Shown: piece after piece, positions 6,835-34,563 of the stretch
Position numbering within the stretch: position 1 is the stretch's first letter
Layout of the letters: each line of letters starts with the position of its first letter
Program-made: the position numbers and the translations under genes
The notes under the pieces: model-generated
Told to the model about the DNA's origin: nothing
What the model saw: the letters and a program-made list of their open reading frames with translations, nothing else
Databases searched by the model: none
DNA from: an uncultured Bacillota bacterium
Lineage (GTDB): Bacteria; Bacillota_I; Bacilli_A; RFN20; CAG-826
DNA length: 64,000 nucleotides
Assembly: GCA_949299565.1 (NCBI GenBank)
Contig: OX437086.1
Span: 880,099-944,098, forward strand
Direction: 5' to 3'

Positions 6835-9138
6835 ATGTCTAAGAAACTTCAATCAAAACTTTTTCTTGGAGCCGCGATTCTTTTAGGCACAAGTGTGACA
6901 CTTTTATCGTGTGGCGGTCCTGCTACTTCAGAGGGAGAAAATAGCTCTTCATCCAGTAGCAACGATACTTCTTCAACGCTTCCGATCGAAAGTCATAGCA
7001 TCAGCATCGGCGAGACGGGAGGCGCGGTTCTTGAACTTTCTGCTGAGACTGCTTCGAGCGGAACGCGAATAGAAATTACAGTCGTCTCGGTTCCTGATGA
7101 CAAGATTATCAGCGCAATTACGACTGATGTTCCGGGAGTTGACGTCATTTCCTCCGGAAACAACAGTTATTATTTCATCATGCCGAACAGTGACGTCACT
7201 ATAAGCGTCACTTTAAGCGATCAAATCGCTGATAGTTACCCATTGACTCTAGTCAATAACACGGATGGAGAAATTGTTGGGATCAGCGACAGTCAAAGCA
7301 ATCAAATTGACGAAGAAAATGGGGTTTATAATTTAACCCCGAACGCTTCTTATTATTTACGGATTATCAACTATACCGGAGCGATTACGGCAAATCTAAA
7401 CGGGGCACCGCTCACAATCGGCGAATATTACATTTCATTTGTAATGCCAGCCGCAGCTTCGACATTGACCATCGATCCGGCTGCTTCTTATTCTGTTTCC
7501 TTTATTTATGATGCAGAAGCTTTTAGTGAAGACCCAATCCTTATTGATTTTGCCTCTGATTACGGAACAATTCTCACGCCATCTAATATCGTGGAGGGAA
7601 CAGAGGTTTATATTGCTGCTTATCCAAATTCCGGTTATTTATTGACGGCGATTAATTTAGATGGCACGCCGATTCAAGAAGAAAACGGCAATTACGTCTT
7701 CACGATGCCGGGTCATGATGTCACGCTAGAATTCATCACTGAAAGCGAGGCTTCTAGTTCATACCTCCTCAACGTAAACGACGTTAACCAAGCCTTGAAT
7801 TTCGTAGTTTATGAAGTCAACGACGGCGTTTTCGAGGAAATTGAAAATTACACACCAACCCAGCGTTTCTTGGAAGGCAGCACTTTGGCAATTTCTTTCA
7901 GCGTCACCGCTCCTTACCGCAACATTTATACCCTTGGCGAAATTGTCATTGACGGCGTTTCAGCAACACCCGATTCAGAAGGACATTATTCTTTCGTTGT
8001 CGCTGATCACAATGTGGAAATCACGGCAAATACAACGCTCATTCAACATAATTTGGCTTTCGATGCGCAAGGAAGCGGCGCCAGTTGTCTCTTCTACAAT
8101 GAAGAAGATGAAATCATTACAACTGCCGGTTGGAATCAAATGGTTAAAGCCGTCTTCACTCATCCTGAGGGCTTAACCTTATTAGCTGTTTATCAAAACG
8201 GAACATTAGGAACTGGTACGCTTGAAGGCAACACTTATACCTTCACGATGGGACAAACAGATTTAACTTTAACAGCCGGCTGGTCAAGCTCCACTAATGT
8301 CTATAATCTCGGCTACAGCGTGACTCCGAGCGATTTAGCCGCACAAGTTTCTGTCACCTTCTTCGATTCTGATAACGGCTTTGGTGATGAAATAACTGAA
8401 GCTGTTGCTGGTCAAACAGTTTATGCACAAATATCGGTTGAAAGCGGCTACCGCGTTGCAAATGTTTCTTTTAACGGCAATACGCTTTCGCTCGTCGAAG
8501 GTTATTATCCGTTAACAGTTTTAGAAGAAGATGTAAAAGTCGAAATTACCGTTGAAGTTTCAAATACCTACAACCTTGTAATTGATCGAAGCAACGCTCC
8601 GTCTGGCACCATCATCGATGTTGTCGATGAAAACGGGACATACTTAGAACTCGTCTCAGGCCATTACGAATTGAGTGCCGGCGACATCGTCTATTTCGAT
8701 CCTTGGGCTCCTGATAGTACTGTTTCTGCGATGTATGCAAATGGCACCGCTCTAGAATTTGTTAGCGGCATTCCGACTCCCTCCGGCACCGGTTATCAGT
8801 TAGAGATGCCGAGTGAAAATGTCACAATCACAATTGAATGGGGAGAAGGAGAAATTCCGTCCGGAAGCAATGAAATCATTTATGTTCCTAGCGATTTAGA
8901 TCCTCAAACTGAAAATTTTGGTCTCAACATTTATAGCGGTTCAACTTGGCAAAGCGTAACTTCTGCTCAAGAAGGCGAAATGATTCTCATCAACGTTTAT
9001 GGTTATCCTGAAAACTACACAATCGAAAATCTCTATGTCAACGGCGTAGTCGTCGAATTTAGCTACGACTATGGAATGTATGTCTTTACGATGCCGGCGA
9101 CAACCGCTTATATCAGCATCAGCTGGCTCATAAGCTAA
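6835..9138 (+). CDS. Surface lipoprotein with repeated beta-rich modules (InlB-B-repeat-like)
   Basis: Signal peptide with lipobox LLSCGG, Ser-rich linker, then at least four repeats of a 60-80 aa module (G-x-E/T-V-x-I ... P-x-x-G-Y ... N-G ... Y-x-F-x-M-P ... D/N-V-T-I). Confidence 0.85.
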   Translation: MSKKLQSKLFLGAAILLGTSVTLLSCGGPATSEGENSSSSSSNDTSSTLPIESHSISIGETGGAVLELSAETASSGTRIEITVVSVPDDKIISAITTDVPGVDVISSGNNSYYFIMPNSDVTISVTLSDQIADSYPLTLVNNTDGEIVGISDSQSNQIDEENGVYNLTPNASYYLRIINYTGAITANLNGAPLTIGEYYISFVMPAAASTLTIDPAASYSVSFIYDAEAFSEDPILIDFASDYGTILTPSNIVEGTEVYIAAYPNSGYLLTAINLDGTPIQEENGNYVFTMPGHDVTLEFITESEASSSYLLNVNDVNQALNFVVYEVNDGVFEEIENYTPTQRFLEGSTLAISFSVTAPYRNIYTLGEIVIDGVSATPDSEGHYSFVVADHNVEITANTTLIQHNLAFDAQGSGASCLFYNEEDEIITTAGWNQMVKAVFTHPEGLTLLAVYQNGTLGTGTLEGNTYTFTMGQTDLTLTAGWSSSTNVYNLGYSVTPSDLAAQVSVTFFDSDNGFGDEITEAVAGQTVYAQISVESGYRVANVSFNGNTLSLVEGYYPLTVLEEDVKVEITVEVSNTYNLVIDRSNAPSGTIIDVVDENGTYLELVSGHYELSAGDIVYFDPWAPDSTVSAMYANGTALEFVSGIPTPSGTGYQLEMPSENVTITIEWGEGEIPSGSNEIIYVPSDLDPQTENFGLNIYSGSTWQSVTSAQEGEMILINVYGYPENYTIENLYVNGVVVEFSYDYGMYVFTMPATTAYISISWLIS

Positions 9139-22621: not shown

Positions 22622-24307
22622 CTATTTAAGGGGTTTCTCGTACAAGGCAAACGTCGTGAGGTTTTTCTCTTTTAAATCTGTGGGATCATAATTTTTGCCG
22701 TTTTCTTGATAAATGTGGAGTCGATAATGCTTTGCCGCTTCTTCATTACAAATCGCGACTAAAATTGTTGAAGAATCAACATTCATCGATGAAACGATTT
22801 TCGCGGCTTCTGAGGTTGAATTGATTTCCTTTTTTAAGCGTTTCTCCAAGAAAATAGAACATTGTTTAAAAGCTTCGTTTTTCGATAAATAAAGCGTCTC
22901 CTTATCATAGATCATATTTCTATCAAGTTCGCGGTTGCTCGCTAAAACGTATCGAATCGGCTTAACGAGTTGCTCGACTTCCTTAAAAGATGAGAATTCG
23001 TTTTTCGGCTCTAAGTCTTCGTTATTGTTGCTGATTGGCACTAAAGCAAGATCTAGATAGCCGTTTTCCAAATATTTTCGTTCAGTCATGAAATCATCGA
23101 AATAGATTTTCTTGTAATCAGAATATTTAGAGGCAAGTTCTGTCCGAAAGGCCATATCTGTATTCGAATAAGGGTATCCGAAAATGCCAATTATTTTTTG
23201 TCCGGGTTTTCTGATCGAATAGAAGGAAGAAGAATAGTCTAGTAATTTTGCATCTTTCTCGCTGATCCGATAAAAACGGACGCGACCGCTCAATTTAGTG
23301 CCTCTTGAGAAGAACCAGCCATCCATCGTCGTAATCCCGTTTTTCCCGATCTGGCCAATGAATTGACAGTTCCCTTCAGCCCGATCACCGGAATTGTTTG
23401 AAACATTCGAGGAATAATGATAGAAGCCCTTCCCGACCATGTCATGCTCGTCAATCCCGAAAACAAAGGAATCCGCCGAGAAGAAAAGAATATCTTCTCC
23501 AACGAAATGACATTTCATCGAGAGCTGTTTCTTTTTATAAGAAATATCGACAATCCTAAGCCTTAAACCTTTCGGAACATAAGCAAGGCCGTCCTTCCGT
23601 TCTTCAAAAGAATAATAAATCCACTTCCCCGTAATCAACGAGTTGCGGTTATCTTCATCAAAGCCCGTCATCCCCAGCACGAGGTTTAAAACAACAACTA
23701 AGACCGTTCCTACCGCGGAATATATTTCTTCATTGGCCTCCGGCAAAAATTTAAAAAACGAGGAAAGGAATAAAAGAATCGTCAAAGTGATCGAAATTAA
23801 GGCAGAAACCAAACGCACGATGAAAGAGACCGTCACATGCGAACCGAAATAATTTTTGATGCGCATGATCAAAGAACGTCGATAATCATTCAATTTAAAT
23901 AGACGAAACTCGAGCATTTCAAAATCTTCATCATCCTCGTCGTATAAAAAGCTCAAGGCTTCCTCGTTATTCTCTTTCGAGAGAGCGTAATTTGAATAAC
24001 GCGAATTCACGAAACGGCTAAGCTTATCGATTTTTGCAACGAATAAGCCGATTTCGATGATTTGATCGATATTTAAACGGCTGATTAAAGAGAGGAAATC
24101 ATAATTTGGATGATTATCGATGGTTCGCGACGGAAGAAGCAAAAAATCAATCTCGCGTTTTTTTAAGCGCGCGACCATTTCTGATAAAGAAGCACATAAC
24201 ACAAGTTCAACTTCCTGCCCCTCAAAAAGTTTATGATTCATGAGGTTTGAAAGTAACACTTCTTTTTGAAGGGTTTCCGGTGTCTTTAAATATCCGACTT
24301 TCAGCAT
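22622..24307 (-). CDS. Membrane protein built from prephenate-dehydratase (PDT)-like domains, no ACT domain
   Basis: N-terminal about 100 aa resemble the PDT N-subdomain (VGYLKTPETL...ELVLCASLSEMVARLKKREIDFLLLP); two hydrophobic helices in the middle; C-terminal about 250 aa resemble a full PDT domain (IGIFGYPYSNTDMAF...LDLALVPISN...STSEAAKIVSS...NLTTFAL) with TTF where TRF is expected. Confidence 0.65.
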   Translation of the reverse strand: MLKVGYLKTPETLQKEVLLSNLMNHKLFEGQEVELVLCASLSEMVARLKKREIDFLLLPSRTIDNHPNYDFLSLISRLNIDQIIEIGLFVAKIDKLSRFVNSRYSNYALSKENNEEALSFLYDEDDEDFEMLEFRLFKLNDYRRSLIMRIKNYFGSHVTVSFIVRLVSALISITLTILLFLSSFFKFLPEANEEIYSAVGTVLVVVLNLVLGMTGFDEDNRNSLITGKWIYYSFEERKDGLAYVPKGLRLRIVDISYKKKQLSMKCHFVGEDILFFSADSFVFGIDEHDMVGKGFYHYSSNVSNNSGDRAEGNCQFIGQIGKNGITTMDGWFFSRGTKLSGRVRFYRISEKDAKLLDYSSSFYSIRKPGQKIIGIFGYPYSNTDMAFRTELASKYSDYKKIYFDDFMTERKYLENGYLDLALVPISNNNEDLEPKNEFSSFKEVEQLVKPIRYVLASNRELDRNMIYDKETLYLSKNEAFKQCSIFLEKRLKKEINSTSEAAKIVSSMNVDSSTILVAICNEEAAKHYRLHIYQENGKNYDPTDLKEKNLTTFALYEKPLK

Positions 24308-24339
24308 ATTGACATTATATACAAAGAAACTTCTTGTTT

Positions 24340-25008
24340 TTATCTTTTAAGGGTCAGGCGATAACTATTATCGATATAAGAATATATTTCTTCGTTCTTC
24401 ACCGTCCCGTTTAAGAGAACTGTAAACCAGTTCTTTTTATTCATGTGATAGGCTGGGAAATAATTATGATAGTCAAGTAAAGAAGATAAGCGTTCTGGTT
24501 CAATCCGTAAATCTAAAATCTCTAGGTTCTCTTCACCTAAAAGACCGATTTTCTTCTCTTTTACAGTTAATAACGCCGCGTACCACGTCTTTGTGTCCTT
24601 TCGCCTAAAAATTGCATTATTCGGGAACTTCTTCCAAAGATATTCCGGTTCATCGCCATATGTTCTTTTTATGTATTCAATTACGAGTTTTGTTTGTTCG
24701 CCTTTAAAGATTTCAGTCGCACAACAATTATTTATAAAGTTCTCGATTGCTGCGTTATAAGCTTCTCTGATTGAACCGATAAATTCTCCGATTGCTTTAG
24801 AGATTAAATGAAGAACATATTCTTCATTCGTGGCTTTTTCGCTTATCCTTACCCATAATTCATCTCCCTTTAAAACATAAAGTTCAAGAAGAAAACGGCC
24901 CCCTAATATCTCGCTTTTATAGGAATAGACGTTATCTAAATAACTAAAACCAAATGGTATAAGTCTCTCAGTGATTATCTTTTTGTTTATTAAGGGAATT
25001 TGCTTCAT
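24340..25008 (-). CDS. MmcQ/YjbR-family putative DNA-binding protein with N-terminal extension
   Basis: C-terminal half (WYAALLTV...LDLRIEP...PAYHMNKKNWFTV) matches my recollection of MmcQ/YjbR motifs. Confidence 0.6.
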   Translation of the reverse strand: MKQIPLINKKIITERLIPFGFSYLDNVYSYKSEILGGRFLLELYVLKGDELWVRISEKATNEEYVLHLISKAIGEFIGSIREAYNAAIENFINNCCATEIFKGEQTKLVIEYIKRTYGDEPEYLWKKFPNNAIFRRKDTKTWYAALLTVKEKKIGLLGEENLEILDLRIEPERLSSLLDYHNYFPAYHMNKKNWFTVLLNGTVKNEEIYSYIDNSYRLTLKR

Positions 25009-25452
25009 GTTTCTTTATCTTAAACATTAAGCCATAAGAGTTCCTTAATCATCAAAGAAAAAACATTTTGTGCGACTACTTTGTTATTATTCTGAGTTAT
25101 TACACAACAAGATTTAAAAAATGTCGAAAAGAAAAAAGAACTTTAATGCTATAAAAAATTTTTCCATTTTATTTCTCCTAACTCTTTCAATTTTTCAAAA
25201 GCGTTTGCATCTATTATTGTGTCTAACCACGGTCCGTTCCCTCCTTCGTCAAAAATGCCGTTGGTACGAAGGCTATCTAATTAAAGATGGCTGAGAGAAA
25301 TCTTCTATAAGCAATGATTTAGTTCTCAACAAGCATTATTAGTCGAATGCTTTTATTTATGCTTTTTCTTTTTTCATAAAAGTTAAACAACAACTCGATG
25401 TATTGAGCTTTTTAAAGATGACTAATTTTTTGATGAAACTTATTCGCGGTCG

Positions 25453-26247
25453 TCAAATATTGCTGATAATGTTAAATAATAAAACGAAAATCAAAACAAG
25501 AAACACTATGAGGCCAAATAAATAACCCATGGAATATGCTATATCGTTTTTCTTATTATTTTTATAACTCGTTTTTTTGCGTACTATTTTTTTATTTTTG
25601 GGAGATATACTGTTTTTTACAGTACCTTGCGTTTTATTGATATTTTTATGTTCAGACAAACGTTCCCAATGCCGCGCAGGGACGCATTTTTTTAAAGCAT
25701 TATACGCTTCTAGATGTTCATCAACTATTTTTCGACAAGCTATTTGATACCTATTAAAACTGGCCATTGGAATGGTTCCATCATAAAGAGAATCAATATC
25801 ATTAATGATCAAGTCGACGCCATTGTTATACATTCCTGTCTCATATTCTATCTTTAAATGTAAAATAAGATGCTCTAAAAGATTGCAGTAGGTTAAAACG
25901 TCAGGTTGGTGAAAGCTAATATATAACGATGAATAAGGTTTATTTGGACCAACATACAAATTCTCTTGCTTAGATAGTTGCGGGTATTTATTTTCAAGAT
26001 CATGATGAATTGAAAGTCCTTCTAACCCGCGCTTAATCGATTTGTTTTGTTTGAATGTATAATTTTTATCAACAATAAAATAAGAACCACTAACTTTCCC
26101 ATATTTGGTTTTAAGAGCTCTTAAGCATTGCTTATAGTTCAAATCACAATATAAATGCTGGAGAAATCTTTCATCTTTTTGAATTTTTTGATATTCAGCT
26201 TCCCCCAAACTTGAGTTTGCTGATTTAGATTCATTGGTTGATTCCAT
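25453..26247 (-). CDS. Hypothetical tail-anchored membrane protein (island gene)
   Basis: 264 aa; soluble N-terminal domain, Lys-rich linker and a single C-terminal TM helix; AT-rich codon usage like neighbouring island genes. Confidence 0.5.
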   Translation of the reverse strand: MESTNESKSANSSLGEAEYQKIQKDERFLQHLYCDLNYKQCLRALKTKYGKVSGSYFIVDKNYTFKQNKSIKRGLEGLSIHHDLENKYPQLSKQENLYVGPNKPYSSLYISFHQPDVLTYCNLLEHLILHLKIEYETGMYNNGVDLIINDIDSLYDGTIPMASFNRYQIACRKIVDEHLEAYNALKKCVPARHWERLSEHKNINKTQGTVKNSISPKNKKIVRKKTSYKNNKKNDIAYSMGYLFGLIVFLVLIFVLLFNIISNI

Positions 26248-26577
26248 ACTTAAATTATATGCTTAAGTTTTGCACAATAGCTTTTATTAAGAATTACTAT
26301 AAAACCAACTTTATAATATGCAACTAAAGATGCACTGCCATTAATTTCACCATAAAAATTATGACGAATATCAATTCAGAAAACGCAAAATGATTGATAT
26401 CGCTATTGCAGATGATGATAAAGTAGTCGTTCTTTTGTGTTTTTATATGTCTATGACTCAAAATATAGAAAAATTTTAGCTAAGAAAATAATAACAAAAA
26501 CTTTCATTGCCTTGTCACTGAAACTAATATCACCATATTTTTTAGGGAGTAGCACGCGTACAAATATGACGTAAATT

Positions 26578-28440
26578 TTACCTAATTTTTAGCATTTTCT
26601 TTATATGTTCATTCAAAGCTTTATCTTCGCAAAATATATAGCATCCTTTTTGCCCACGCGTTAATAGGGTGCGATAAGTGTTTTTGATGATAATATCGCA
26701 ATCTTTTTCGTGAAGCGGGTTATTCTTGTAGCCCTTTAGTGATTTGTCAGTTTTAGCTCTTGCATCTTTGTTTGTTAAAACATTACCGTGCCTATAGATT
26801 AGGTCTTTTCCAATAATCACACCAACGTGATCAAATTCAAGCCCCTGACACGTGTGAATGCAGCCTATTTGATCAAAAGAGTCCTTATCTATTGCCCAAG
26901 TCTTGGTGTTTGAAAAGTTCCACTGAGCTTTAAAATCGCTCCCTATTTGAATATCAAATTTTGTCAAATCATCACGACTTATCCAATCATAACAATAACC
27001 CGCAACAATTCTAGACTTATTGTTTATCTCGTTTTTCTTTCTCAGCTCTTCCCTCATTGCAGAAGGGCTATCGAAGACCTTTATATCATATTCCTTTCGG
27101 TCGAAACTAACATTCGCTGTAGGCCTAATTTCTAGCAAATTATCTAAAAAAGCTAAGTATGCGTCACTACCATTACATCTAAACTGAGATGTTAGCGTCA
27201 ACTCTTTTCCAAAATAGGCTTTTGAATCTAAAATTTTAGCCCATTTTTTAATTTCGTCTATTGAACCGATATCGCTGGAAGTAATTCTTTGATCCTCGTC
27301 AATAAAAAAGACGCTAACCTTCGCTGCGTTAATTATTTCTTTTATTTGGTTTTCGCCTTTGCCGTTAAAAATAGATTTTTTGTTCAAACGATGAGCTTCA
27401 TCGGCAATGATACAATCGAATTCGTTTTTAGTGGAGTCAACAAAAACACCACTGCCTTTAAATAAATTTTTAATATACGCTTTTTTAAAATCTCCACCTG
27501 CGAGTTTTTTATAATAAACTTCTCGTGGTGCACTATTCTTAGAAGTGTAGATAGCATTAAAACCATCGCGAATTAAACTCGACAGCATCTTGATTGCAAT
27601 CACAGATTTTCCAGTGCCAGGACCGCCTTGAACGATAATGGTATGTTTAGTGTCGGTTTTTAGACTCTCATTAATCGTTTTCAAAATAGTTTCATATGCT
27701 ACCTTTTGCTCATCCAATAGTTTAAAAGAATCATTTCCTTTAATTAACCTTTCGATTTCATCTTGTAAAGCAGTTGATGGTCTAATTTTTCCATTTTCAA
27801 TTTCGTATAAAATTTTTCCATCATCAGGATTAACAACATACTTCTTTATAAAATCAGCCAGTTTTTTTCGATCCCTTTGTAGAAAAAGCGGAGCCTCTTT
27901 TATTATAGTTCGATAGCGCTCATCTTCGATTTTATATCGATTTGATTCATTGAAATTATGAAGAAAGGCGCAAGGAATCATTCGAATATTCTTTTTTTGA
28001 ATAGATTCGTTAAAATTCTCGATAGTTTTCGCATAACTATATGCTTGATATGATGGGTGTGCCTCTTCTCTATATGCTCTTGCGACATAGGTTATTACTA
28101 TATCCTTCTTGTCGCTTAGTTCTATATCTTCCCATTGCTTAAGTTCTATGATGACTGCGTTGCTTTTGCCGTGATCGTCTCTACCTGTGATTATAAAATC
28201 AATTCTTTTCGATGTTAGAGGAATTTGAAGTTCTATTGCGACGTTTAAATTTCTATTTATTCCAAAAGATTCATCAAAAACTCCATCAATCTGCGGCAAC
28301 GAGTTCTCAAAGGCACGATGTTCCCTTGGATTATTATGCGTGAGTCCTTGCTTGCGAAACCCATCCTCGATTCGATCAGCAATGACGCCATTTATAATGT
28401 CTTCATGAAATTTGCTTACGATGCTAGAGTAGATTATCAT
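26578..28440 (-). CDS. PD-(D/E)xK nuclease-like N-terminal domain fused to a DUF2075/SF1-helicase-like P-loop ATPase
   Basis: N-terminal IDFIITG ... AVIIELKQW (D ... E-x-K); Walker A VQGGPGTGKSV; Walker B/DEAH-like CIIADEAHRL; motifs SQFRCNG and CQGLEFDHVGVIIG; start ATG overlaps the MazG-like stop (ATGA). Confidence 0.8.
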   Translation of the reverse strand: MIIYSSIVSKFHEDIINGVIADRIEDGFRKQGLTHNNPREHRAFENSLPQIDGVFDESFGINRNLNVAIELQIPLTSKRIDFIITGRDDHGKSNAVIIELKQWEDIELSDKKDIVITYVARAYREEAHPSYQAYSYAKTIENFNESIQKKNIRMIPCAFLHNFNESNRYKIEDERYRTIIKEAPLFLQRDRKKLADFIKKYVVNPDDGKILYEIENGKIRPSTALQDEIERLIKGNDSFKLLDEQKVAYETILKTINESLKTDTKHTIIVQGGPGTGKSVIAIKMLSSLIRDGFNAIYTSKNSAPREVYYKKLAGGDFKKAYIKNLFKGSGVFVDSTKNEFDCIIADEAHRLNKKSIFNGKGENQIKEIINAAKVSVFFIDEDQRITSSDIGSIDEIKKWAKILDSKAYFGKELTLTSQFRCNGSDAYLAFLDNLLEIRPTANVSFDRKEYDIKVFDSPSAMREELRKKNEINNKSRIVAGYCYDWISRDDLTKFDIQIGSDFKAQWNFSNTKTWAIDKDSFDQIGCIHTCQGLEFDHVGVIIGKDLIYRHGNVLTNKDARAKTDKSLKGYKNNPLHEKDCDIIIKNTYRTLLTRGQKGCYIFCEDKALNEHIKKMLKIR

Positions 28441-28763
28441 AACTTATCATATTTAAGAGATTTTGATTTGCATTTTTCAATAGGATATTTTCTTTTCGTT
28501 TTTTCAAGTTTATCTAAAACAATTTTATTGATATCAAGATTCAAGACTTGCGCCATTTGAATACAATAATTAATTACATCGGCAAGCTCGTCTTTTACAT
28601 CATTTGAGTTGAAGTTTTTCTCATCCCATTGAAAACACTCAAGAAGTTCGTTGGCTTCAATGGAAATAGATTTAGCTAAATTAGCGGGTGTATGAAATTT
28701 GTTCCAATCTCTCTCGTCAACGAATTTTTTAATTTCCGCTTGCAATAAATCTAGTTTATCCAT
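28437..28763 (-). CDS. MazG-like nucleoside-triphosphate pyrophosphohydrolase (small all-alpha type)
   Basis: 108 aa with the EExxE-type metal-binding segment (SIEANELLECFQWDE, DELADV); translationally coupled to the nuclease-helicase gene. Confidence 0.75.
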   Translation of the reverse strand: MDKLDLLQAEIKKFVDERDWNKFHTPANLAKSISIEANELLECFQWDEKNFNSNDVKDELADVINYCIQMAQVLNLDINKIVLDKLEKTKRKYPIEKCKSKSLKYDKL

Positions 28764-28858
28764 GATTTTATTTTATCATTGTTAAAGATTAAAAAACTAA
28801 AGAAATGTTCGGCACTGCTTTTCAGTATCGGAGTATCAAAATAACCACTTCAATATTG

Positions 28859-28879
28859 CTTAACTTTTTAAAAGTTAAG
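28859..28879 (-). promoter_or_regulatory. 21-bp near-perfect palindrome upstream of the MazG-like/nuclease-helicase operon (candidate operator)
   Basis: CTTAAC-TTTTTAAAA-GTTAAG, about 100 nt upstream of the MazG-like start; AT-rich, so not a convincing terminator. Confidence 0.3.
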
Positions 28880-29088
28880 AAGCTACATGGTACTAGAATC
28901 GCCTCACATTCTTGTCTGAATCATTTGCATAGCCGTAACATCTGCCGTCGAAATGCTCAAATTGTTCCAAATCATGAGTAACCTCAATACCCTCTAGCAA
29001 AGAAGGCAACAAACCAAAGCAAACAACCCTGTTGCAATAAGTTTGGCAGCTAACAACAAAAAACTCAGTCCTATAACTCAGTAATCGA

Positions 29089-29769
29089 TTATTCAACCAT
29101 AAGAGTTCCAATGAATTGACCAACATTTGACCCTAGTTCTTCTTTAAGATCATATAAATCTTCACAAAATTCTTGTTCATTCTTGATTGCAATTTTAATT
29201 TTGTCTTTATAAATTGCGAAGTCCAAATTGCGCTTATTGTGATGGAAAAAATTTTCAACCTGTAATTCTAAGTATCTTTTAGAATTCTCTTTACAATTTT
29301 CAAGCATCTTTTTCCTATCTAAATTGAAAATTTTATCGTCATGCATTAACAAAAATAATTCAAATGTCGGATTTGAAATACAAAGCTTGTATCCTTTTTC
29401 ACAACATAATTTTAAATAAGTATCATATTGCTCCGATTTAAAATTCTGAGGATCACGATCAAAAACGAATACTGCAATATCAACATCCTTATCATAATTA
29501 ATTTTGCCTTCTTTTACTGAGTCCTCAAAATTATTGATTTTACGTTTTAAATGACTTTGACCAACTTCGTCTTCCTCGTTTTCAATAATAGTAAGCTTTA
29601 TAAGTTTGTTTAGATGAAGACATTCGCTATTGTTTTTTAAGCCTTCAAAATATCTTATTTCAGTTACATCGCCCTCCGAAACAATAAAACAGAATTTATT
29701 AAACTCTCTATTATTTCTTTTTCTATCATAATTACTTTTGCTGCCAAGTTCTCTCATCAAACACCTCAT
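29089..29769 (-). CDS. RloB-like protein (AbiLii-like partner of the upstream ATPase)
   Basis: Motifs CFIVSEGDVTEIRYF and CISNPTFELFLLMH match my recollection of the RloB family; start overlaps the ATPase stop (TAATG). Confidence 0.7.
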   Translation of the reverse strand: MRCLMRELGSKSNYDRKRNNREFNKFCFIVSEGDVTEIRYFEGLKNNSECLHLNKLIKLTIIENEEDEVGQSHLKRKINNFEDSVKEGKINYDKDVDIAVFVFDRDPQNFKSEQYDTYLKLCCEKGYKLCISNPTFELFLLMHDDKIFNLDRKKMLENCKENSKRYLELQVENFFHHNKRNLDFAIYKDKIKIAIKNEQEFCEDLYDLKEELGSNVGQFIGTLMVE

Positions 29770-31112
29770 TAAGCGAAGTAATTATTAAAATTAGGAATTC
29801 CACCATATCGTCCATCTAGATAGGCCTTATCAACTTTTTTATCAAATCTTTCGCCAAATTCTTCAAGCGAATATACTGTGGTTGGTCCATTATTTTTTCT
29901 TTCACAAAACCAAATCTCATCCCTTCTCAAAAGATCCAAATCCAATAAACGAGTTTCATGTGTAGTTACAACTAATTGAGAATTTGATGTTTTAGAAAAG
30001 AAAGACTTAATAAATTCGAAAGAAAGATCTGGATGAAAACATCTATTAAGTTCATCAATAAAATAAACTTTCTCAGAATGATCATCCATTAAAACTTGAA
30101 TCAAATCAAATAACCTTTGAGTACCATCGCTCTCTTCATCAAATTCATATAACCCGTCGTCATTTCTGTGCTGAAAAGTTATTTTCTTTAGTTGATAAGA
30201 GTTATCTTTTTTGCCGAGAAAGTAAATATTGTTATTGAGCCTTATATTAACTTGCGGATTGGTCTTTTTATTCTTAGAAGCATTAAACTGTTCAAATTGA
30301 TTGAGTAAATCATTAAATATAACAGGAGGCAATTTATTTTGAAGTTCTTCAAGTGGACAATCGACCAATTTGCATTCTGATATACCAGTTCCAAACTTTG
30401 AAATTAAAGCATTTATCTCATTAATTTTCTGGTTAGAAATGAAAAATTTAGAGTTGTCTAAAGACATATTTGGGAAAATAACAACCAACGAATTAGAAAA
30501 CCAATTAAATATTTTTTTAAAAATCATTACACTATTATTTGCGTTTTCTTCATATAAAGTGTCCTTGTTGGTATTCATCAATGTTAAAAACAAAATATTG
30601 TCCTGATTTTTAATATCAGAGTAATAAATATTAAGCCTATTTAAAATATCTTCTTCAAAATAATTTTTGCTTAACTTTATTCCGCCATTTGTGACTCTTT
30701 TAAAAATCAAAATATCTTTCTCATCAGGACCAAGTTCATACAGCCATTCGGCCTTAATGCTATTTTTAGAGAGTAATATATCAAAACCATAGGTATATAT
30801 CTTATTATCAATTTCAAACTCAAAATCAAAAGTAGAAATTTTATCTTTATTCTCTTTTTTTCCTCTGTAATAACAACTCGACCAATTAATTCTAATGCCT
30901 TCTAAAACTACTCTTTTGAAAAAGGCAACAGCCTTAATTAAATTTGATTTCCCAGAAGCGTTTGCTCCGTATAATTCAGCAAATTTAAGTATTTTCAATT
31001 TGCCCTTATTAACACAATGATCAACTTTCTTTTTAGGAGCTCCAGCCACCATCGATATTGTTTGCTTTGAGTCAAATGATAAAAAATTCGATATGGTATA
31101 GCTAATTAGCAT
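29769..31112 (-). CDS. AAA/ABC-type ATPase (AbiLi-like, AAA_21-type)
   Basis: Walker A GANASGKSN near N-terminus; split-ATPase C-terminal motifs DEESDGTQR, Walker B VYFIDELNRCFHP, TTHE; RBS AGAGGAGG upstream. Confidence 0.8.
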   Translation of the reverse strand: MLISYTISNFLSFDSKQTISMVAGAPKKKVDHCVNKGKLKILKFAELYGANASGKSNLIKAVAFFKRVVLEGIRINWSSCYYRGKKENKDKISTFDFEFEIDNKIYTYGFDILLSKNSIKAEWLYELGPDEKDILIFKRVTNGGIKLSKNYFEEDILNRLNIYYSDIKNQDNILFLTLMNTNKDTLYEENANNSVMIFKKIFNWFSNSLVVIFPNMSLDNSKFFISNQKINEINALISKFGTGISECKLVDCPLEELQNKLPPVIFNDLLNQFEQFNASKNKKTNPQVNIRLNNNIYFLGKKDNSYQLKKITFQHRNDDGLYEFDEESDGTQRLFDLIQVLMDDHSEKVYFIDELNRCFHPDLSFEFIKSFFSKTSNSQLVVTTHETRLLDLDLLRRDEIWFCERKNNGPTTVYSLEEFGERFDKKVDKAYLDGRYGGIPNFNNYFA

Positions 31113-31134
31113 GGCTTACCTCCTCTTTGGTTAG

Positions 31135-31227
31135 ATTATAAGTGAAATTATCACTTGCAACAATCTTATTGAGTAATAAATTAACCTTATTTTGAAAATA
31201 TTTTATAAATTAAGGTGAAATTTTCAC
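31135..31227 (-). promoter_or_regulatory. Promoter of the AbiL-like operon with two palindromic operator-like sites
   Basis: Minus-strand reads GTGAAAATTTCAC (31215-31227, perfect 6-bp arms) ... TTGCAA-GTGATAATTTCAC (31142-31154)-T-TATAAT (31135-31140), then RBS and ATG at 31112; the second palindrome lies between the -35-like and -10 hexamers. Confidence 0.4.
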
Positions 31228-31302
31228 ATTGATTTAAAAGTATCGCCATGTTTTTTATTCTAAATAAGGTATTAAGACAATCAATTAAACCGCCACTGTA
31301 TT

Positions 31303-31328
31303 AAATAAAACAGCACCATTAAGTGCTG
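31303..31328 (-). terminator. Candidate Rho-independent terminator after gene 31426..32202
   Basis: Minus-strand hairpin CAGCAC-ttaatg-GTGCTG followed by TTTTATTT; stem is only 6 bp. Confidence 0.35.
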
Positions 31329-31425
31329 AAATTTGAGAATGTCTTTGTGTTATCGATTTAATACAAAACGATACCCCCTGTTAGAAAAATGACACCATTA
31401 TAAAGTGTTTATTTTGTTTGGCTTT

Positions 31426-32202
31426 TTACTTTCTCCTTCTCTTTCTTGTCGTTTTTTTCGATTTTTCTAAGCCTAATTTCCAAAGCCCCATATCCAAAAG
31501 TTTCATTTGTGGATATTCAATTGATGGGAGGTCTTTTAAAGTTAAAGTTTCCATCTTTTTTCTAATCTTTTTTTTATTTTTTGAATAGAAATCGACTAGC
31601 GCTTCGAATGAATTTTTACCGAATCTTTGAACTAATTCTTTTTCTCCGCATTCCTCTTTTCCAAATTTTAGTGCTCCTTTTAGCATCTCATCGTAAGCAG
31701 GAACGCATCCTAATGTTCCTAAGAGAATCTTCGTAACTAGAATGTCCGAAATAGCTTGATTAGTTGACTCGTCTTCGTTCCTAGCTTCTCTTCTAAAACG
31801 CTCATATTCTTTCTTAATTGAATTTATTAGTCCTTCATTACCTTCACTACCGAAGAGTAGATCTAAATTTGAAGAGTAGTTCTTATCACCTTTGTCCCAG
31901 CAATAGCCAATTAAAGGTTTATATTTATCATTGAGAATTAATTTGACGGTTTGAAGATGAACTTTGTAATCAAATTGCAACAGAAAAGATGATCCACGGT
32001 ACATTCCCCATGATGCAAGATAAAAAGCAAGGTGCAATGACAAATTCAAGTAATCATCTTCATTTAATTCGTTCAATTTATCGAATGCTTCATGAAATTT
32101 ACCATAACAATATTCCCAAGACAAATATCTAGAATTTGCATTGCTATCTATCTCTCTCTTAAACTTATTAAAAGATTTAATAAATTCATTAATAAATTTC
32201 AT
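31426..32202 (-). CDS. Hypothetical protein (island gene, basic C-terminal tail)
   Basis: 258 aa ORF with AT-rich codon usage; no family recognised; ends in a Lys/Arg-rich tail. Confidence 0.5.
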   Translation of the reverse strand: MKFINEFIKSFNKFKREIDSNANSRYLSWEYCYGKFHEAFDKLNELNEDDYLNLSLHLAFYLASWGMYRGSSFLLQFDYKVHLQTVKLILNDKYKPLIGYCWDKGDKNYSSNLDLLFGSEGNEGLINSIKKEYERFRREARNEDESTNQAISDILVTKILLGTLGCVPAYDEMLKGALKFGKEECGEKELVQRFGKNSFEALVDFYSKNKKKIRKKMETLTLKDLPSIEYPQMKLLDMGLWKLGLEKSKKTTRKRRRK

Positions 32203-32324
32203 ATCTATGCCTCCCTATATTTTTCAAAGAATTTATCTTCACCTGCTCTTCTAGCTTTAATAACATCTATTTTATATTTGAATCTGCCGAGCAAATGTGA
32301 TCTGTGTTGAAATATAATTTGAGC

Positions 32325-32650
32325 TACCTATAGTCTTCGCTCCCTATCGTAATGAACGCCTGTGATGTCTGATGTGTTGCTTTTTTGGAATTTCCAATAG
32401 TTCTTTTGTTTTTCTTATAGGCAAAGCTAACCACTGTCAGTCTACCGAATTTTTGACCAATCAAGTCCCTCACCATGAAACGACTTCAACCGCTAAATTT
32501 GACCTGGCCAGTATGGAGCATGTTGACATTGAATTCTACCTCTTTTTCACAAACGCAACGTCATTTATAAATCTTTGTGGAATGATGCTTCTTCCCAGTA
32601 TCTTCGATCACAGTCAGATAGACATAGCGTTTCCCAATTTCAATATTCAT
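32325..32650 (-). pseudogene. Decayed gene fragments sharing an N-terminal G-x-K/R-F/Y-G-R-L-T-V motif
   Basis: Minus-strand short ORFs MNIEIGKRYVYLTVIEDTGKK (stops after 29 aa, with a Cys-containing continuation in another frame) and MVRDLIGQKFGRLTVVSFAYKK (50 aa, 32325..32477); GC content differs from flanks. Confidence 0.3.
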
Positions 32651-32765
32651 TTGCTTTGTAACCAATCAATAAATTTATAAACAAAATTGAAACCAAAAAA
32701 ACGAAAATAAAAGGATGGTTGTCGCCCACCACCCCAATTCAATCAAAGGAGGTTCTCATAGAACC

Positions 32766-33755
32766 TTAATCTTGTCTACTTACCTCCTTATCCAGGTTTT
32801 TAGCTAGCTTTGTGAAGATATAGCTATATTTCACATAGGTCTTTCCACCAAAGTCTTTGTTGTTTGTCGTTCTAATGCCATAAGGATTGAAGTTAAAGTC
32901 CTGCTCTTCCAAATCATCCTTGGCATCAGTGTTTTCGACAACGAGTTCACTGATATAAAGATTATTGGTTGGATGACCAAAATAGGAATTGATATCCCTC
33001 AAATTGACGTTTTGATAGTACTCATCAGCGGTTTTGCTATATGCAACATTGAAATAGATATCAAATGCATAAAGATAACCCATCGGCACAAAGTAATGCG
33101 ACAGATAAGTGTTGATGAGTAGACACTTATCAAGCAAATCCTGAATCAGTGACTTCAATCCGACATCGTAGCTTCTAATGACAACAAGATGGCTTTGAGC
33201 ACTAGAAGGCATGAACATTGAATAACCACTCTCCTTGGAGAAGACATTAACGTTTTCCGTGTCGAAGACCTCTCTTATGAAGTCGAATATTGCACTGGTC
33301 TTGACGAGCCTTAAATCAATAAGAATCTCACCACAGAACTTCTGCTTCTTCGATGCCTTCACGAACTGATTGAAAAGCCTGACTCCATATGCAGAATCAA
33401 AAAGTGTAGGCTGATTCACTTTATCGCTACCATTGGTTTGGTTGACGATTTCATAGTGGTTTTCAACTTTCACGACCTTGAATGATTGGCCGTTTGCGTT
33501 AAAGCAGATCTTATCGGCTTTTTCATCGTTGGTCAGAATATGGCAACAAACCAAGTTGTAATCCGCTGTTTTTCCTCCTTTTGACTGAGGATAGATGTGG
33601 TCGAGGTTCCATCCGTATTCGCTGTTGCGATTATCGTAGGCGGACTTAGCCATCGTCCTTCCAGCGAAATCCACAGCCCTGGTCTGCTTCCCGTACCTTG
33701 ACGTCCACAAACGCATTGCAGTTTCTCTGTTAACAATCATTTTTTCATTTTTCAT
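32766..33755 (-). CDS. HNH-nuclease-domain protein with unassigned C-terminal domain
   Basis: N-terminal GWNLDHIYPQSKGGKTADYNLVCCHILTN fits the HNH signature (D-H-x-x-P, N-L, Cys pair); the C-terminal about 230 aa has no motif I recognise. Confidence 0.65.
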   Translation of the reverse strand: MKNEKMIVNRETAMRLWTSRYGKQTRAVDFAGRTMAKSAYDNRNSEYGWNLDHIYPQSKGGKTADYNLVCCHILTNDEKADKICFNANGQSFKVVKVENHYEIVNQTNGSDKVNQPTLFDSAYGVRLFNQFVKASKKQKFCGEILIDLRLVKTSAIFDFIREVFDTENVNVFSKESGYSMFMPSSAQSHLVVIRSYDVGLKSLIQDLLDKCLLINTYLSHYFVPMGYLYAFDIYFNVAYSKTADEYYQNVNLRDINSYFGHPTNNLYISELVVENTDAKDDLEEQDFNFNPYGIRTTNNKDFGGKTYVKYSYIFTKLAKNLDKEVSRQD

Positions 33756-34445
33756 AATTTAATCTTTCAACAAGAAAAAAACTATGAGGTTGACCTCCTT
33801 TCATAAGGAGACGAATGCAATGATTGACTATAGGGCGACCTACTGCTGATACCTCGAAGGGTAGTTCTCTTAACAGCTTTGACAGAAAACTTTATCAATC
33901 AGCTCTAACTAAAGAGCTGTTAGATTCGTTCCTTACGTACTAATTATAACCGATGGAAACTATTAAAAAACGAAAATCTTGTGAATGCAAAAAAATGATA
34001 ACATTAGTCAAATTATTGCAATCAGCGCATAAAGTGTGAACTCTTAAATCTTTTTGATAAAACTTTTAGTCTATTTTGACTTTCTCATTGTTAAACCACG
34101 ACTTCGGAGGAAAATGCTCAAAAGATAAAGTTTTTTTCTAAACAAATATGACAAGTCCCAAAATGATTATTCTTTATTGTTTTCATACTAATATTTTAGC
34201 GTCATAAACTATGCAACCTAATCGTTTCTCTACTAGGCGTATCACATTTTCCTAGGGTATCTTTTTCTAGTAGCCTTAGCGTTCATCTAGTAGAGTTCTA
34301 TTTTGCTAGTAGCCTTAAACCACCTTTCGATTCCTTGGAGGTTTCGAACTTTAACTAGGAAAACTACTTAAAAAAATGCCCGATTTCTCGGACAAATATC
34401 GTTAATTTTGACACCCTTACTTTGTATCAAAATTTAGTTATAAGA

Positions 34446-34519
34446 TGGCAGGGGCTGAAGGAATCGAACCCTCATCAAAGGTTTTGGAGACCTCTGTTCT
34501 ACCATTGAACCAAGCCCCT
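34446..34519 (-). tRNA. tRNA-Trp (anticodon CCA)
   Basis: 74-nt cloverleaf folded by hand: acceptor AGGGGCT/AGCCCCT, D-stem GTTC/GAAC, anticodon stem GAGGT/ACCTT with loop CTCCAAA, T-arm GAGGG-TTCGATT-CCTTC, discriminator G and encoded CCA. Confidence 0.9.
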
Positions 34520-34563
34520 ACAATTCGTGTATTGTATCCTTCTTTCGTTTCAAGAACAAGTAA

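Follow-up and report, generated by a model that had tools for sequence, protein, structure and literature searches.

Paired palindromes over the promoters of AbiL defence operons as putative autoregulatory operators

Introduction

Which protein would bind a pair of palindromes lying over the promoter of a two-gene defence operon, and with what consequence for that promoter? The question is raised by a stretch of 64,000 nucleotides from an uncultured low-GC Bacillota bacterium (contig OX437086.1, positions 880,099 to 944,098); the whole stretch is called the window here, and coordinates refer to it. The window carries an AbiL operon in which abiLi, coding for a Rad50/SMC-like ABC ATPase, precedes abiLii, coding for an RloB-family protein, and two copies of the palindrome GTGA-W5-TCAC lie upstream of abiLi. 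We propose, with a probability of about 0.6, that the AbiL proteins would bind these sites and repress their own promoter.

AbiL, an abortive-infection system of phage defence, is widespread and mechanistically uncharacterised, and the reviews of 2024-2026 only group it with PARIS. Its prototype is AbiLi/AbiLii of the Lactococcus lactis plasmid pND861, described as two co-transcribed genes (Deng et al., 1999, as relayed by PMC13064643). The AbiL system is thus already known, and operators over an operon's own promoter are familiar for toxin-antitoxin and Abi systems. What appears to be undescribed in the literature we searched is an operator shared across phyla, its fixed spacing and its presumed reading by a complex devoid of a classical DNA-binding domain. 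In that literature, covered in part and without the 1999 AbiL paper, we found nothing relevant on an AbiL operator or motif, or on autoregulation of AbiL or OLD systems.

Results

The proximal palindrome, O1 (31142..31154), reads GTGAAATTATCAC, or GTGATAATTTCAC on the gene strand, and is one mismatch short of perfect in the window, while the distal palindrome, O2 (31215..31227; GTGAAATTTTCAC, gene strand GTGAAAATTTCAC), is perfect. Both are strandless, predicted operators of 13 bp. They start 73 bp apart, as the initial annotation had it, and 60 nt of A/T-rich DNA lie between them. O1 fills the spacer of the promoter, whose layout on the minus strand is TTGTTG, three nucleotides (CAA), O1, one nucleotide (T) and TATAAT. 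The −10 hexamer TATAAT (31135..31140) is invariant in the seven promoters that we aligned, and the −35 hexamer TTGTTG (31158..31163), set off by a 17-nt spacer, is replaced by TTGATA at the same place in close relatives. The initial annotation had already put a palindrome between a −35-like hexamer and a perfect TATAAT. That arrangement still stands, with the hexamer shifted by 3 nt, as the spacer would be 14 nt instead of 17 with the earlier choice, TTGCAA (31155-31160). A Shine-Dalgarno sequence, GAGGAGG (31119..31125, minus), whose core AGGAGG (31119-31124) is conserved in relatives, lies 6 nt before the abiLi start codon, an ATG at 31112. On the upstream side, a terminator scan returned a terminator-like hairpin, CAGCAC-N6-GTGCTG followed by a T-run (31301..31328, minus), which is also conserved in relatives; it closes an upstream gene of 258 amino acids and insulates the AbiL promoter from it.

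When the window was searched for GTGAAAWTTTCAC with at most one mismatch, three matches were found against 0.23 expected, a count reached by none of 100 dinucleotide-preserving shuffles. Two of the three are the promoter pair. The remaining near-match, GTGAAAATGTCAC at 8813-8825, is inside an open reading frame (ORF; 6835-9138) and is probably due to chance.

Comparison with relatives provided a footprint of the same elements. Six loci have an AbiLi that shares 81-82% identity with that of the window; their O1 is a perfect GTGAAATTTTCAC abutting TATAAT, and their O2 persists, though degenerate in its left half. The alignment has no gaps between the sites, so that the 73-bp spacing is kept, and the DNA between O1 and O2 has largely diverged. 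A more distant set comprised 80 fetched genome loci that represent at least seven phyla and whose AbiLi shares 27-60% identity with that of the window. In this set the 13-mer turns up repeatedly within 45 nt of the abiLi ATG, on its upstream side. The hosts of the loci as a whole belong to Firmicutes, Bacteroidota, Cyanobacteria, Chloroflexota, Spirochaetes, Ignavibacteria, Fusobacteria and Proteobacteria. Perfect GTGA-W5-TCAC sites number 31 in the 150-nt regions upstream of AbiLi (12.3 kb), compared with 6 in the other 652 kb of these loci, an enrichment of about 270-fold, and their commonest position is −42/−41 from the ATG. A clear site is present in about 60% of the sampled loci, and in many others it is degenerate. 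Some clades carry variants of the motif (GAGA..TCTC, ACGA..TCGT or hybrid half-sites), which track the clades of the AbiLi protein and not the host taxa, and the half-sites are 5 bp apart in the window, as they are at almost every related site.

The position of the sites relative to the promoter recurs as well. Firmicutes-type loci show TTGACA-N3-site-N1-TATAAT, the layout of the window, in unrelated loci too, and the site of Bacteroidota-type loci adjoins the −7 box, TAnnTTTG, either upstream or downstream of it, and may end a few bases before the ATG. Second copies cluster at a distance of 71-73 bp (the window, L071, L025, L051, L216, L221, L244 and L248), with 72-73 bp in L071, L025, L051, L216 and L244, and are found less often at 58-63 bp or at around 50 bp, all of these spacings being near whole numbers of helical turns. 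The same architecture is present on two plasmids whose hosts are culturable: Bacillus mycoides p77 (L244) has two perfect GTGAAAAAATCAC sites 72 bp apart, and Fusobacterium varium pFV113-g1-1 (L248) reads TTGCAA-AAA-GTGAAAAAATCAC-T-TATAAT, with its distal site 71 bp off.

To look at the motif without reference to any protein, we scanned a metagenome collection for the DNA pattern GTGAW5TCAC-N58-61-GTGAW5TCAC alone, which matched at least 120 loci. Among the 120 matches listed, 97 have the N-terminus of an AbiLi starting within 250 nt of the pair, with gaps of 58 nt (15 loci), 59 nt (36), 60 nt (44) and 61 nt (2). The other 23 are promoters at contig edges, or tandem or eukaryote-like repeats, and none of the matches listed is the clear promoter of another gene. 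No match to the paired motif was found in viral contigs, though a protein-based scan found 35 AbiLi-like loci there. Since 97 of the 120 matches listed adjoin AbiLi, the pair appears to be close to diagnostic for AbiL, and paired GTGA-W5-TCAC sites 71-73 bp apart could serve as a practical marker for AbiL promoters. The footprint in relatives, the motif shared across phyla and the DNA-only scan lend strong comparative support to the view, advanced in the initial annotation, that the palindromes are operators over the operon's own promoter, and we consider the sites to be very probably selected, AbiL-specific cis-elements.

As for the genes themselves, abiLi (29769..31112, minus) is an ORF of 447 codons for an ATPase of the AAA_21 family, in which we recognised Walker A (GANASGKSN, residues 49-57), the signature EESDGTQR (326-333), Walker B (VYFIDELNR) and the H-loop TTHE (383-386). 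Directly downstream and in the same orientation lies abiLii (29089..29769, minus), a 226-amino-acid ORF for an RloB-family, Toprim/OLD-like nuclease with the motifs SEGDVTEIRYF and SNPTFELFLLMH. The two ORFs are separate, the ATPase and Toprim parts being unfused, with a stop codon (29769-29771) between them. Profile searches gave AAA_21 (Pfam, 2.8e-26) and AbiLi (PADLOC, 3.9e-78) for the first protein, and RloB (Pfam, 2.9e-25, over profile positions 2-194 of 195) and AbiLii (PADLOC, 2.9e-15) for the second. AlphaFold2 modelled the two with a mean predicted local distance difference test score (pLDDT) of 82.5 and 86.7, respectively, and the AbiLii model has an OLD/Toprim-like fold that matches the Toprim domains of OLD and GajA; a sequence search of solved structures returned marginal matches to PtuA and SMC only. 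Because both proteins match their Pfam and PADLOC families, the pair is almost certainly an ordinary member of the known AbiL family, in agreement with the assignment first made from the sequence motifs. AbiLi is presumed to act as sensor and scaffold and AbiLii as the toxic effector.

By AbiLi, the nearest genome representatives are an uncultured Bacilli metagenome-assembled genome (60% identity) and Candidatus Onthovivens (52%). RloB follows AbiLi in 77 of the first 88 fetched loci plus the window, and loci that seemed to be without it are mostly frameshifted, interrupted by an insertion sequence or ended by a contig edge. Several clades have an RloB partner of about 290-320 amino acids compared with about 220, which implies an extra region (L010, L012, L018, L024, L025, L031, L034-L036, L047, L051 and L055); operators are present in most of them. 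In the Treponema saccharophilum plasmid pTS1 (L251; NZ_AP025289, 251800-254988), the position of RloB, after an AbiLi-like ATPase with 31.5% identity, is taken by a Nudix-like (deoxy)NTP pyrophosphohydrolase, possibly an effector swap within the AbiL family. We considered this plasmid as a natural partner swap that could reveal the binding protein, but it was uninformative, as its upstream sites are non-palindromic and distant from the start. A public gene call of the identical ATPase protein (P0001) sets the start 20 codons too late and gives 427 amino acids.

The initial annotation had joined the two genes by a TAATG stop/start overlap. That sequence is literally present, one base of the first ORF's stop codon being part of the second ORF as well, and it is probably not the real start of RloB. 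All 47 aligned homologues of RloB begin at the position of Met5 in the window, and the corresponding ATG (29757), 9 nt past the AbiLi stop codon, is preceded by a GAGGTG Shine-Dalgarno sequence. For these reasons the ATG at 29757 is likelier to be the start, giving a protein of 222 amino acids, and the TAATG start probably goes unused.

We then considered which protein would bind the palindromes, for which the initial annotation had left two options, a regulator encoded elsewhere or one of the two proteins. When 786 ORFs from the neighbourhoods were clustered, no conserved third gene emerged, no family occurring in more than 4 of 82 loci, and this evidence favours one of the two proteins over a regulator encoded elsewhere. 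A search for a small regulator upstream of AbiL returned only unconserved ORFs of 20-24 amino acids, and the upstream region had no credible match to a known RNA in Rfam. Across phyla, the gene pair is the only constant companion of the operators, which makes the operon's own products the most likely source of the binding factor, as an AbiLi dimer or oligomer or as a complex of AbiLi with AbiLii. The ATP-engaged head dimer of ABC proteins has 2-fold symmetry and binds duplex DNA in Rad50 and SMC, and such a dimer would suit a palindrome.

Within AbiLi, the C-terminal tail (residues 420-447, ERFDKKVDKAYLDGRYGGIPNF; codons 29772..29855, minus) is among the most conserved segments, with R422, F423, D424, D428, K429, A430, Y431, G434, Y436 and P440 invariant, yet it is modelled as disordered, with pLDDT below 50. 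Such a combination is typical of a segment that becomes ordered on a partner, and we regard the tail as a candidate DNA-reading or partner-binding element. Residue 423 was found to covary with the second base of the half-site: F goes with T (GTGA) in 26 of 27 unique loci, and Y with A (GAGA) in 8 of 9 (Fisher's exact test, 2.6e-6, uncorrected for phylogeny). The Y state arose in about four separate clades, among them L047, whose sister loci have F with GTGA, and a cyanobacterial plasmid with a Y tail (L250), whose best site is of the GAGA type. Columns of RloB were also tried as correlates of the operator type and proved weaker (at best 0.77, for residue 223, against 0.88 for AbiLi residue 423). 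Nine viral-contig loci that combine the R-x-D tail motif with scorable sites make up an independent test set for the covariation. As it stands, the covariation is only suggestive of the AbiLi tail as the reader. Three Muribaculaceae loci (Duncaniella; L059, L060 and L067) lack the GA-N5-TC operator and have a long inverted repeat, TTGTCGTAT...ATACGACAA, over the −7 box and the start codon; this clade shows a short deletion in the AbiLi tail where other loci have R-x-D.

Discussion

Taken together, the promoter architecture and its conservation are consistent with negative autoregulation of the AbiL operon. According to this model, the operon would have a sigma-70 promoter of its own (TTGTTG-17 nt-TATAAT), set behind the upstream terminator, and the two 2-fold symmetric 13-bp sites would act as operators. 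Because O1 fills the −35/−10 spacer, a protein bound there would exclude RNA polymerase. O2, some seven helical turns upstream and on the same face of the DNA, would probably strengthen occupancy by cooperative binding or looping. Autorepression of this kind would keep a potentially toxic nuclease at a low set-point. Tight self-limitation is plausible since, in the NetFlax experiments, AAA ATPases neutralise TOPRIM_OLD toxins in a manner similar to toxin-antitoxin systems (PMC10440598). We may further speculate that remodelling of the complex upon infection releases the operators, which would link activation to re-synthesis.

How the sites would be read can be specified with less assurance. 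That AbiLi supplies the operator specificity is a tentative idea, which we would rate well short of an even bet. Slightly less likely still is the fuller version, in which AbiLi is itself the sequence-specific repressor, as a dimer or oligomer alone or together with RloB, reading GTGA-W5-TCAC partly through its disordered tail (R-F/Y-D...YLxGRYGG-P), one multimer bridging both operators and infection-induced remodelling also releasing the promoter. If true, this would represent a new mode of sequence-specific DNA recognition for defence ABC ATPases and a regulatory code for the whole family.

Several observations weigh against the proposed autoregulation or against the AbiLi tail as its reader. 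We found no helix-turn-helix (HTH), ribbon-helix-helix (RHH) or other recognisable DNA-binding domain in either AbiLi or AbiLii. About one third of the sampled loci have only degenerate sites or none, and the motif was not found in distant AAA_21 plus RloB pairs (at most 30% identity; plasmids of Acinetobacter, Klebsiella and E. faecium). Regarding the tail, the covariation is uncorrected for phylogeny, with about four independent clades behind it, other residues at position 423 (N, K, P, L and H) pair with either operator type, and a large Bacteroidota clade has HKT for RFD and still GTGA operators.

The lack of a canonical DNA-binding domain in both AbiL proteins would also fit a different scenario, in which a regulator encoded elsewhere in the host, similar to CRP/FNR or Rex, binds the sites, so that AbiL would answer to host physiology and not to its own products. 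GTGA..TCAC does resemble the half-sites of CRP (consensus TGTGA-N6-TCACA) and Rex (TGTGAA-N4-TTCACA). However, the spacer is N5 and not N6 in essentially every site, the motif accompanies a horizontally mobile cassette in at least seven phyla, which differ in their global regulators, and its variants follow AbiLi clades instead of host taxa. Neither did we see the motif at other promoters: the paired-motif scan gave almost only AbiL loci among the matches listed, and the 64-kb window has one other near-match, within an ORF. Given that the cassette crosses phyla, that its half-sites are spaced by N5 and that the motif is unseen at other promoters, we deem a host regulator quite improbable. CodY, Rex and CRP were rejected as readings of the motif by half-site spacing and sequence.

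Binding by the AbiL complex need not imply repression, as the sites could be docking or recognition sequences, or positive-control or sequestration sites that park the complex until infection. A docking or recognition role would parallel the sequence-specific nicking of DNA by GajA, an OLD-family enzyme. The site, however, lies consistently in the −35/−10 spacer or beside the −7 box of Bacteroidota, the classic geometry of RNA polymerase occlusion, and enrichment is restricted to the operon's own promoter, with none elsewhere in the loci. We therefore think this reading improbable too, if a little less so than a host regulator. Finally, the palindromes might be chance products of AT-rich intergenic DNA, or the promoter might merely have been inherited with the genes. 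The region is 29-32% G+C, and short A/T-rich inverted repeats are common in such DNA. Against this explanation stand the shuffles, none of 100 reaching three matches where 0.23 were expected, the roughly 270-fold enrichment across loci whose proteins share only 28-60% identity, the conserved spacing of 71-73 bp and the adjacency to AbiLi of 97 of the 120 matches listed in the DNA-only scan. On these comparisons, chance is effectively refuted.

The proposed autoregulation finds parallels and departures among known systems. The window pair shares with AbiL of L. lactis the succession of an AAA_21/Rad50-like ATPase and an RloB/Toprim-like protein, and both PADLOC models match it; it differs in coming from an uncultured low-GC bacterium. 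A tblastn search of PLSDB for the L. lactis prototype returned no Lactococcus record, and the link to the prototype rests on the PADLOC models only. Recent literature (PMC13064643, PMC11464382) groups AbiL with PARIS and describes it as an 'ABC ATPase + TOPRIM' system whose mechanism is unknown, and PARIS is described as activated by phage proteins and cleaving tRNA (PMC11464382). PARIS consists of the ABC ATPase AriA and the Toprim nuclease AriB, its effector, which is of the DUF4435 type, whereas the second protein of the AbiL pair is RloB (PF13707): RloB was its sole match in Pfam, and AbiLii its sole match in PADLOC. The ATPase likewise fits the AbiLi model (3.9e-78) far better than AriA. 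To our knowledge, nothing comparable to the activation or tRNA cleavage of PARIS is known for AbiL. An ATPase and an RloB of the same Pfam families occur as RloA/RloB within the type I restriction-modification loci of Campylobacter (Miller et al., 2005, as cited in PMC13064643). The window pair, in contrast, lies outside any such locus, in a low-GC island with a MazG-like and SLFN-type helicase pair.

Like autoregulated type II and type IV toxin-antitoxin and Abi operons, the window has palindromic operators, here predicted ones, over the operon's own promoter. In AbiE, for example, the antitoxin AbiEi represses its own promoter (PMC3985639). The gene order is also that of toxin-antitoxin operons, where a neutralising gene precedes a toxic one, and AAA plus TOPRIM_OLD pairs behave in this way (PMC10440598). 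Those antitoxins have HTH, winged HTH, RHH or AbrB domains, in contrast to AbiLi and AbiLii, in which none of these domains was detectable. Operators of CRP/FNR or Rex differ in that their half-sites are 6 bp apart compared with 5 bp here. With GajA (Gabija) and the OLD-family nucleases the AbiL pair shares ABC ATPase chemistry combined with that of a Toprim domain. In GajA and P2 Old (OLD classes 1-2) both domains belong to one polypeptide, whereas in the window they are split between two proteins. GajA is reported to recognise a specific DNA sequence, and we know of no role for it in regulating its own promoter.

A conserved, near-AbiL-specific cis-element offers a concrete and testable regulatory mechanism for the family. 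It also hints that ABC-ATPase/Toprim defence complexes can recognise defined DNA without a classical DNA-binding domain, which bears on how self-toxicity is avoided and perhaps on sensing.

Genomic neighbourhood of the operon

The operon is located in a low-GC stretch from about 24 to 34.4 kb (0.29-0.33 G+C, compared with about 0.41 elsewhere in the window), which ends at a tRNA-Trp gene (34446-34519, minus). The stretch also holds an HNH-like protein of 329 amino acids and several proteins with no family match, and as a whole (24000-34520) it looks like an integrated defence island. AbiL is followed, at 26578-28763 on the minus strand, by a MazG-like gene (108 amino acids) which overlaps by 4 nt a gene for a helicase of SLFN group 3/DUF2075 (620 amino acids), the latter with weak PADLOC matches to PDC-S41, AbiO and Nhi. 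The MazG-like and helicase genes also come after AbiL as a pair in L004, L005, L007 and L008, and perhaps form a two-gene defence module of their own that moves along with AbiL.

On the other side of the operon, the terminator hairpin stands directly after a tRNA-Met gene in L005-L008. In L005 and L007 (5304-5790), the start of the AbiL cassette comes immediately behind a tRNA array (Ala, Met, Met, Ser, Met) and its terminator hairpin. In the window (31301-31420, minus) and in L001-L004, the hairpin is retained together with some 90 nt in loose alignment with the 3′ portion of that tRNA-Met, which may be the relic of an integration at a tRNA gene.

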